Below are positions 32,280 through 37,318 of a DNA stretch of 64,000 nt, in pieces (positions within the stretch are counted from its first letter, which is position 1; every line of letters starts with the position of its first letter). Made by a program: the position numbers and the translations under genes. The DNA is from Escherichia coli (GTDB lineage: Bacteria > Pseudomonadota > Gammaproteobacteria > Enterobacterales > Enterobacteriaceae). Where the stretch lies: the NCBI RefSeq assembly GCF_048403405.1, contig NZ_CP183129.1. One strand, given 5' to 3'. The notes beneath the pieces were generated by a model. It was not told the origin of the DNA, made no database searches, and was given only the letters and a program-made list of their open reading frames with translations.

Positions 32280-33401
32280 ATGGTTGCTGAGTTGACCGCA
32301 TTACGCGATCAAATTGATGAAGTCGATAAAGCGCTGCTGAATTTATTAGCGAAGCGTCTGGAACTGGTTGCTGAAGTGGGCGAGGTGAAAAGCCGCTTTG
32401 GACTGCCTATTTATGTGCCGGAGCGCGAGGCATCTATGTTGGCCTCGCGTCGTGCAGAGGCGGAAGCTCTGGGTGTACCGCCAGATCTGATTGAGGATGT
32501 TTTGCGTCGGGTGATGCGTGAATCTTACTCCAGTGAAAATGACAAAGGATTTAAAACACTTTGTCCGTCACTGCGTCCGGTGGTTATCGTCGGCGGTGGC
32601 GGTCAGATGGGACGCCTGTTCGAGAAGATGCTGACACTATCGGGTTATCAGGTGCGGATTCTGGAGCAACATGACTGGGATCGAGCGGCTGATATTGTTG
32701 CCGATGCCGGAATGGTGATTGTTAGTGTGCCAATCCACGTTACTGAGCAAGTTATCGGCAAATTACCGCCTTTACCGAAAGATTGTATTCTGGTCGATCT
32801 GGCATCGGTGAAAAATGGGCCATTACAGGCCATGCTGGCGGCGCATGATGGTCCGGTGCTGGGGCTACACCCGATGTTCGGTCCGGACAGCGGTAGCCTG
32901 GCAAAGCAAGTTGTGGTCTGGTGTGATGGACGTAAGCCGGAAGCATACCAATGGTTTCTGGAGCAAATTCAGGTCTGGGGCGCTCGGCTGCATCGTATTA
33001 GCGCTGTCGAGCACGATCAGAATATGGCGTTTATTCAGGCTCTGCGCCACTTTGCTACTTTTGCTTATGGGCTGCACCTGGCAGAAGAAAATGTTCAGCT
33101 TGAGCAACTTCTGGCGCTCTCTTCGCCGATTTACCGCCTTGAACTGGCGATGGTTGGGCGACTGTTTGCTCAGGATCCGCAGCTTTATGCCGACATTATT
33201 ATGTCGTCAGAGCGTAATCTGGCGTTAATCAAACGTTACTATAAGCGTTTCGGCGAGGCGATTGAGTTGCTGGAGCAGGGCGATAAGCAGGCGTTTATTG
33301 ACAGTTTCCGCAAGGTGGAGCACTGGTTCGGCGATTACGCACAGCGTTTTCAGAGTGAAAGCCGCGTGTTATTGCGTCAGGCGAATGACAACCGCCACTA
33401 A
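32280..33401 (+). CDS. tyrA: bifunctional chorismate mutase / prephenate dehydrogenase
   Basis: 373-aa [68 protein letters not shown]... Confidence 0.93.
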
Positions 33402-33443: not shown

Positions 33444-34604
33444 TCAGGTTGGATCAACAGGCACTACGTTCTCACTTGGGTAACAGCCCAATACCTTCAT
33501 CGAACGGGTGATGTCCCCTAACTCTTTCAATGCTTTTTGCATTTCCGCTGATTCAAGATTGGCCTGAATATCCAGATAAAACATCTCTTCCCATGGATTA
33601 CCGTGAATCGGGCGTGACTCCAGACGGGTCATAATCAGATTGTGGTTGCGCAGTACCAGCAACGCTTCAACCAGCGCACCAGCTTGTTGCCCGGTCGCCA
33701 TTAACAACGTCGTTTTCGCTGGAACCTGGTCAGACACGTTAATGGCTTTACGTGCCAACACCACAAATCGGGTGAAGTTTTGTCGCTGATTCGCTTCAAT
33801 ACGCTCCAGTACCTGCAAACCGTACAAAGTGCCGCCAGCTTCGCTTCCCAACGCAGCAACATGCGGTGATTTTACCTGTGCAACCTTTTCCATTGCCGCA
33901 GACGTACTTTCGGTATATTCAATCTTCCAGTGCGGATAACGATTAAGGAATTTGCTGCATTGCTGGAATGGCTGCGGATGGCTGTAGACCGTATTGATGG
34001 TGGATAAATCAGTAGTGCCGGAGACCAACAAACAATGGTCGATAGTTAACGTCATCTCGCCAACAATCGACAAACTGGTATGTTGCAGCAGATCGTAAAC
34101 GTCATTTATGGCACCGGAGCTGGTATTTTCAATCGGTACGACGGCATAGTCGGCCTGGCCGGTTTCCACCTGATTAAAAATATCGGCAAATTTGGCGCAG
34201 CCACTTTCAATGAATTGCTCAAAGTGACGGGCAGCATACTGGCGCGCCGCAAGATGGGAATAAGAACCTTTGGGGCCGAGAAAAGCGATGCGTGCTGAGT
34301 GCGGATTAATTTTATTGAGATGTTGCTGGAGCAAAGCCTGCTGAGTTAATACGGAATCTTCAATGATGAGCTGGAACAGGCGAGTAATGTAATGGGCGTC
34401 CAGATGGTGCGCTTTACCGAGCGTAATTAATCTTTCCAGTAAATCGCGTTCACGATCAATATCACGTACCTGGCGATGCGAGAGCAGTTTGGCTTTTCCC
34501 ACCTCGACGGCCAGTTCGCGCCGCTCTGCCAGTAATGCTAATAATTTTTCATCCAGCGCGCTGATTTTCTCTCGCAGCGCCAGTAATGGATTTTCCGATG
34601 TCAT
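33444..34604 (-). CDS. pheA: bifunctional chorismate mutase / prephenate dehydratase
   Basis: 386-aa [67 protein letters not shown]... Confidence 0.93.
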
Positions 34605-34616
34605 AGTGTTGCCTTT

Positions 34617-34702
34617 TTGTTATCAATAAAAAAGGCCCCCCGATTTGGGAGGCCTTATTGTTCGTCTTCGCATTCTGTTTCACACGACGAAACGCCTCCC
34701 AT
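34617..34702 (-). promoter_or_regulatory. pheA attenuator (leader terminator/antiterminator region between pheL and pheA)
   Basis: GC-rich hairpin aaaaaggccccccgatttgggaggcctt with flanking T/A runs directly downstream of the Phe-rich leader ORF. Confidence 0.75.
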
Positions 34703-34750
34703 TCAGGGGAAGGTAAAAAAGAATGCGAAGAAAAACGGTGTGTGTTTCAT
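34703..34750 (-). CDS. pheL: pheA leader peptide (15 aa, 7 Phe codons)
   Basis: Reverse complement atgaaacacacaccgtttttcttcgcattcttttttaccttcccctga = [15 protein letters not shown]. Confidence 0.85.
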   Translation of the reverse strand: [15 protein letters not shown]

Positions 34751-34853
34751 GTTTGTTTCCTTAAGTGACTTCAGTACAGTACCCGTACTGTTTTCACGCT
34801 GTCAACAAAAAACGCGCCCGAAGGCGCGTTGGCGATACACTCAATATAAAGGA

Positions 34854-35249
<396 letters not shown>

Positions 35250-35465: not shown

Positions 35466-36203
35466 TTATGTATTGCTGCTGTTTGCGGCGATGATTTTCG
35501 CTACTTTTTCAGCTTGCGCATTCATCTGCATCTGACGGTATGCATTTTCCATCAGCGGCAGCGCATCACGCGTAGCCTGGGTATCCGGGTAGTCGCGCAA
35601 CATGCCTTCTACGCGGTTAACGACGGCAACCCATGCGCCACGTTCTGTATAGTACTCGGCAACGGAGTATTCATATTTCGCCAGACGATCTTTCAGGAAT
35701 ACCAGACGTTTGGTGGCATCGGTGGTGTACTGACTGTTCGGATAGCCGCGCACCAGTTTGGAAAAGTCACTAAACGCAGCTCGTGCATGTTGAGGATCGC
35801 GATCGCTACGATCGACGCCAAAGAACCCTTGCAGTGCACTGTCATCGAGCGCCATATTGGTCAGGCCACGCATGTACATGACATAATCGATATTCGGATG
35901 GGTCGGGTTAAGGCGAATAAAACGATCGATGGCAGCCTGTGCTAACGGCAAATCGGCGTTTTTATAGTAGGCGTAGATGAGATCCAGCTGCACCTGCTGC
36001 GAATACGGACCAAACGGATAGCGATTATCTAACGCTTCCAGTTGCGTTATTGCCTGTCTCCAGTTACCGTCCTGCAGCTTTTGTTGTGCAGTCGCGTAAA
36101 TTTCATTTGGCGGATTATCAGGTACTTCTTCCTTTGACCCCGAGCAACCCGCCAAAAACAGGCTTAGTGTGGCGGCTGCCACCAGATATTTCATGCGCGT
36201 CAT
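35466..36203 (-). CDS. bamD: outer membrane protein assembly factor BamD (YfiO), TPR lipoprotein
   Basis: 245-aa [70 protein letters not shown]... Confidence 0.93.
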
Positions 36204-36337: not shown

Positions 36338-37318
36338 ATGGCACAACGAGTACAGCTCACTGCAACGGTGTCCGAAAACCAACTCGGTCAACGCTTAGAT
36401 CAGGCTTTGGCCGAAATGTTCCCGGATTATTCACGTTCGCGGATAAAAGAATGGATCCTCGACCAGCGCGTGCTGGTTAACGGCAAAGTTTGTGATAAGC
36501 CGAAAGAAAAAGTATTGGGTGGCGAGCAGGTTGCCATCAACGCAGAGATTGAAGAAGAAGCGCGTTTTGAACCGCAGGATATCCCGCTGGATATCGTCTA
36601 TGAAGATGAAGACATCATCGTCATTAATAAACCGCGCGACCTGGTGGTTCATCCTGGCGCGGGTAACCCGGATGGCACGGTACTGAATGCGTTGCTTCAT
36701 TACTATCCGCCCATTGCCGATGTACCGCGTGCGGGCATCGTCCATCGTCTGGATAAAGACACCACTGGCCTGATGGTTGTGGCAAAAACCGTTCCGGCTC
36801 AGACGCGTTTAGTCGAATCTTTGCAACGGCGTGAAATTACTCGTGAGTATGAAGCGGTGGCAATTGGTCATATGACCGCTGGCGGTACAGTAGATGAACC
36901 AATCAGCCGCCACCCGACCAAACGTACTCACATGGCGGTACATCCCATGGGCAAACCGGCGGTCACTCACTATCGCATCATGGAACACTTCCGTGTGCAC
37001 ACGCGTCTGCGGTTGCGTCTGGAAACCGGACGTACGCACCAGATCCGCGTGCATATGGCCCATATCACTCATCCGCTGGTGGGCGATCCGGTTTATGGTG
37101 GCCGTCCGCGTCCGCCAAAAGGTGCTTCGGAAGCGTTTATCTCCACGCTGCGTAAGTTTGACCGCCAGGCGCTTCATGCAACCATGTTGCGTCTTTATCA
37201 CCCAATCTCCGGCATCGAAATGGAATGGCATGCGCCTATTCCACAAGATATGGTGGAGCTGATTGAGGTGATGCGCGCCGATTTCGAAGAGCATAAGGAT
37301 GAAGTGGACTGGTTATGA
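36338..37318 (+). CDS. rluD: 23S rRNA pseudouridine(1911/1915/1917) synthase
   Basis: 326-aa ORF with S4 domain and RluA-family motif HRLDKDTTGLMVVAKT. Confidence 0.93.
   Translation: MAQRVQLTATVSENQLGQRLDQALAEMFPDYSRSRIKEWILDQRVLVNGKVCDKPKEKVLGGEQVAINAEIEEEARFEPQDIPLDIVYEDEDIIVINKPRDLVVHPGAGNPDGTVLNALLHYYPPIADVPRAGIVHRLDKDTTGLMVVAKTVPAQTRLVESLQRREITREYEAVAIGHMTAGGTVDEPISRHPTKRTHMAVHPMGKPAVTHYRIMEHFRVHTRLRLRLETGRTHQIRVHMAHITHPLVGDPVYGGRPRPPKGASEAFISTLRKFDRQALHATMLRLYHPISGIEMEWHAPIPQDMVELIEVMRADFEEHKDEVDWL

Follow-up and report, generated by a model that had tools for sequence, protein, structure and literature searches.

The element at positions 34703-34750 of the 64,000-nt stretch of E. coli DNA analysed here (the window) is almost certainly the leader-peptide gene of an ordinary pheL-pheA attenuator from a non-K-12 E. 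coli, carrying at codon 4 a common and ancestral threonine, while the isoleucine of K-12 and of about a quarter of E. coli is the derived form. The Thr4 allele is already known, with thousands of annotated copies in RefSeq, and the attenuator mechanism is unchanged. The evidence for this reading comes from the leader ORF itself, the surrounding RNA structures and genes, the distribution of the two alleles in E. coli and the state of codon 4 in related species.

The pheL ORF lies on the minus strand, from 34750 to 34703, and by translation consists of 15 codons plus TGA, ending in UUC_CCC_UGA. It opens with ATG AAA CAC ACA CCG, continues with TTT TTC TTC GCA TTC TTT TTT and closes with ACC TTC CCC TGA; 7 of its 15 codons encode Phe, at positions 6, 7, 8, 10, 11, 12 and 14 (FFF-A-FFF-T-F). 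Codon 4, ACA (Thr), spans 34741..34739; the polymorphic base is the second of the codon, at 34740, a C on the minus strand and a G on the plus strand. The initial annotation had reported Thr, encoded by ACA, at this codon without stating the strand, and minus-strand translation bears it out; a plus-strand reading of 34703-34750 was rejected, the resulting translation, SGEGKKECEEKRCVFH, being meaningless. The peptide is 100% identical to WP_001386991.1, "pheA operon leader peptide PheL", as annotated in the pheL CDS of E. coli strain 7/2 and, as another example, in O157:H7. This is the same allele, and the 301 nt around it are identical as well; the whole 301-nt region is also 100% identical in several unrelated isolates. 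A full-text literature search found neither peptide string, the one with Thr4 or the one with Ile4, in any paper.

In K-12 MG1655, pheL (b2598, NC_000913.3 2737599-2737646) has ATA, encoding Ile, at codon 4; direct alignment thus supports the K-12 sequence given in the initial annotation, and K-12 does not itself carry ACA. Over the 301 nt aligned there are four differing bases, of which one lies inside the ORF, the C at 34740 (T in K-12), giving the non-synonymous difference between ACA (Thr) here and ATA (Ile) there. The further differences from K-12 are at window position 34772 and in pheA codons 5-6, where two bases differ synonymously. The element is otherwise like K-12 pheL and the Rfam family RF01859 in its locus, its length, its seven Phe codons, its UUC_CCC_UGA ending, its hairpins and its terminator. 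Ending as it does in ACC TTC CCC TGA, it also belongs to the CCC_UGA-terminated group of enterobacterial pheL genes described by Gurvich et al., 2011 (PMC3082878), with which it shares the UUC_CCC_UGA end, a Pro at -10 and the near-invariant nucleotides from Pro5 to the stop; it is unlike the rest of that group in codons 2-4 only, which are described as variable there too.

All of the anatomical parts of a textbook pheL-pheA transcription attenuator are present, and the element is identified as one because of its RF01859 score, its seven Phe codons, its hairpins and terminator, and the pheA gene downstream. Using cmscan, the Phe leader RNA element (Rfam Phe_leader, RF01859) was matched at full length on the minus strand at 34626..34751, covering model positions 1-125 of 125; its 132.2 bits (E = 8e-25), where the gathering score is 55, put it far beyond chance. 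Matches to the Rfam families Arrc14, sraA, STnc130, ctRNA_p42d and sX6 near the locus were set aside as chance, as none comes near its gathering score and their E values are 0.2-0.9.

The region 1:2 hairpin lies at 34660..34736 on the minus strand, as seen in the MFE fold (-51.7 kcal/mol, z = -5.2) and in agreement with the Rfam consensus structure; it pairs the Phe-codon segment with the segment downstream and constitutes the pause/anti-antiterminator structure. The alternative antiterminator (2:3), at 34646..34701 on the same strand, is predicted, at -23.3 kcal/mol (z = -4.1), for an RNA from which region 1 is removed and whose transcription has yet to reach the 3' arm of the terminator. It pairs UGGGAGGC (34701-34694) with GCCUCCCA (34653-34646), the latter being the 5' arm of the terminator; within it, GGGAGGC (34700-34694), just past the stop codon, pairs with GCCUCCC (34653-34647). 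The intrinsic terminator (3:4), detected both by a terminator scan and in the folds at 34626..34656 on the minus strand, consists of a 10-bp stem (34656-34632), 7 of whose pairs are G-C, a loop of 5 nt and, after the hairpin, the T-run TTTTTTAT. It sits between the leader ORF and pheA, and the antiterminator is predicted to be mutually exclusive with it. Neither the seven Phe codons nor the attenuator hairpins are disrupted, as the initial annotation had also stated; translation, Rfam matching, folding and terminator scanning all bear this out.

When charged tRNA-Phe is scarce, the ribosome stalls on the seven Phe codons of pheL and masks region 1, region 2 pairs with region 3 to form the antiterminator, and RNA polymerase enters pheA. 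With ample Phe, the ribosome instead translates pheL through to its stop codon, and formation of the 3:4 terminator brings transcription to an end. The literature on this response of pheA to charged tRNA-Phe via leader translation concerns the K-12 allele and is summarised in PMC3082878.

The pheA gene itself, encoding the 386-aa chorismate mutase/prephenate dehydratase, lies at 33444..34604 on the minus strand, as identified from the list of ORFs and from annotated loci that are identical or nearly so. Its ATG (34604) is 98 nt past the pheL stop (34703), on the same strand, and it differs from the K-12 gene at 20 of 1,161 nt and 3 of 386 residues (P45Q, A244V and E364D, from K-12 to the window). 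Around the pair are tyrA (32280-33401, plus strand), raiA (34854-35195, minus strand), bamD (35466-36203, minus strand) and rluD (36338-37318, plus strand). The RaiA protein is identical to that of K-12, and the gene order around pheL (raiA, bamD, tyrA) is as in K-12, with the locus in inverted orientation. The 22-kb stretch from 24000 to 46000 shows 99.9% identity to a few human isolates, such as MS 69-1 and TUM14771, and at least 99% identity in 317 genomes; the window is non-K-12 E. coli chromosome. The same stretch also holds an rRNA operon, clpB, ffh and dgcN.

Upstream of pheL, the TTGACA at 34800..34805 on the minus strand is the inferred -35 hexamer of the pheL-pheA promoter, on the basis of its sequence and of a published primer: a reporter carrying "the phenylalanine promoter" was amplified by a primer starting at this TTGACAGCGTGAAAACAGTAC (PMC3082878). 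A generic sigma-70 scan of 34500-34900 called no promoter, a good -10 hexamer being absent there. About 5 nt upstream of the TTGACA and directly downstream of raiA there is a strong terminator hairpin (34811-34830, minus strand), whose 8-bp stem contains 6 G-C pairs and leads into a T-run; by the K-12 annotation, the raiA mRNA and RaiZ, an sRNA derived from the 3' UTR, both have their 3' ends here. In the promoter/5' UTR, 22 nt 5' of the pheL ATG, minus-strand position 34772 is G in the window and A in K-12 (TACTGAAGTC vs TACTAAAGTC). This position is polymorphic in the genus, with G in E. albertii, E. whittamii and Escherichia sp. E1V33 and A in Escherichia sp. MOD1-EC7003.

The frequencies of the two pheL alleles were determined by megablast with 35-mers centred on the SNP, against 5,426 complete E. 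coli genomes; as megablast seeds on exact words of 28 bases, a mismatch at the centre of a 35-mer prevents a match. The ACA/Thr 35-mer was found in 3,993 of these genomes (73.6%) and the K-12 ATA/Ile 35-mer in 1,392 (25.7%); together they cover 99.2%, with 41 genomes (0.8%) matching neither. Exact 61-mers gave the same direction, 3,560 genomes with ACA and 1,383 with ATA, but left 479 genomes unassigned owing to other nearby SNPs, and those counts were superseded by the 35-mers. Thr4 is thus the majority form in an ordinary E. coli polymorphism, its carriers including O157:H7, BL21, B7A and LY180. The initial annotation had treated the codon as a small strain marker. The base does differ from that of K-12, but Thr4 is both the majority form and, by the comparisons below, the ancestral one, which makes K-12 the variant; as a marker, the base at 34740 tells one only that a strain is not in the K-12-like quarter of E. 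coli. RefSeq naming follows the allele, with "pheA operon leader peptide PheL" used for Thr4 and "phe operon leader peptide" for Ile4, apart from a few exceptions such as H67 and H85.

For the wider comparison, species-representative genomes were scanned for a conserved 11-residue coding pattern, which yielded at least 120 pheL loci. Four non-coli Escherichia lineages among the matches listed served as outgroups, with E. fergusonii, Shigella and Salmonella lying outside the sample. Codon 4 is ACT in E. albertii, ACG in both E. whittamii and Escherichia sp. E1V33, and ACA in Escherichia sp. MOD1-EC7003, so that all four of the non-coli lineages among those matches encode Thr. As every sampled non-coli Escherichia has Thr, this residue is ancestral in the genus, and the Ile4 of K-12 derives from it through a single C-to-T transition of ACA. 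The use of Ile codons elsewhere is in line with such a derivation from ACA: the 13 other species with Ile before Pro5 among the matches listed use ATC (10) or ATT (3), and none uses ATA.

Across the 120 Enterobacterales leaders listed, the position just before Pro5 is occupied by eight different residues -- L in 29, T in 28, V in 19, K in 16, I in 13, F in 11, Q in 3 and H in 1 -- encoded by 19 codons. Codons 2-4 are hypervariable among these leaders, which in some species are also extended at the N-terminus or begin with GTG. From Pro5 to the stop, on the other hand, the 36 nt (34703-34738, minus strand) take just two forms in 105 of the 120 leaders listed, the window having the commonest of all (63 of 120); here only the conservation at synonymous sites is informative, since the search pattern admitted synonymous variation only. 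Taken together, the N-terminus looks unconstrained, while the RNA and Phe-codon segment that it leads into is under tight constraint, and Gurvich et al. reached the same conclusion on pheL conservation (PMC3082878). One of the genomes scanned, the metagenome-assembled Enterobacter sp. UW_MP_ENTER5_1, has pheL on two separate contigs in different versions, MVRKPFFF..., as in Serratia grimesii, and MKQTPFFF..., as in Enterobacter cloacae, which suggests a mixed bin.

Within the RNA, the SNP corresponds to position 12 of the Rfam model, where the 5' segment of the consensus is unpaired, and in the predicted fold the first paired base comes 4 nt after it; the two alleles give identical MFE structures and energies (-51.7 kcal/mol). 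Three wild-type codons before CCC_UGA suffice for wild-type +1 frameshifting in pheL (PMC3082878), and therefore codon 4 lies outside the frameshift signal. Codon 4 also precedes the Phe run and all of the paired segments, so that the Thr/Ile difference most probably has neither selective nor regulatory consequences. That attenuation is probably unaffected, as the initial annotation had proposed, is therefore a reasonable inference, with the SNP in an unpaired 5' segment and the predicted fold unchanged.

Two other accounts of the base at 34740 need to be weighed against an ordinary, neutral polymorphism. It could be an error of sequencing or assembly, or a rare mutation private to this one strain and hence a sharp strain marker; nothing speaks for this beyond the difference from the K-12 reference, and it is refuted by the frequency of the allele in the population, by the identical isolates and by the outgroup Thr. 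The exact 35-mer occurs in thousands of independent complete genomes, the unrelated isolates match over the full 301-nt region, and other Escherichia also have Thr, in the case of Escherichia sp. MOD1-EC7003 with the same ACA codon, leaving this account with a negligible probability.

The other account takes the K-12 codon as the one of interest. ATA is rarely used and has its own minor tRNA-Ile, and the first codons of the leader may be translated at slightly different speeds in the two alleles. It is conceivable, though very improbable, that the rare AUA at codon 4 of K-12 slows the leading ribosome, or requires the minor tRNA-Ile, to the point that strains with ACA have a different basal read-through into pheA. 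The K-12 codon choice is indeed unusual, ATA being absent from the 13 other Ile-encoding species listed, and attenuators are sensitive to ribosome position. On the other hand, the position tolerates eight residues and 19 codons across the species listed, it lies outside all of the paired regions, the folds are identical, and both alleles are at high frequency in E. coli; moreover, the classic model has the polymerase pause at the 1:2 hairpin until the ribosome catches up, which buffers the effect of the speed at which the early codons are read. Slightly less probable again is a more specific form, in which the derived AUA would weakly tie pheA attenuation to the lysidine-modified minor tRNA-Ile, a coupling that the ACA allele would lack, with basal pheA expression differing slightly between the two. 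A common, probably neutral Thr4 in an ordinary pheL-pheA attenuator remains by far the preferred reading.

K-12, then, is no proxy for "the" E. coli sequence: at 34740 it is the laboratory reference that has the minority and derived state. Because of this, differences from K-12 should be polarised with population and outgroup data before the query sequence is named the variant.
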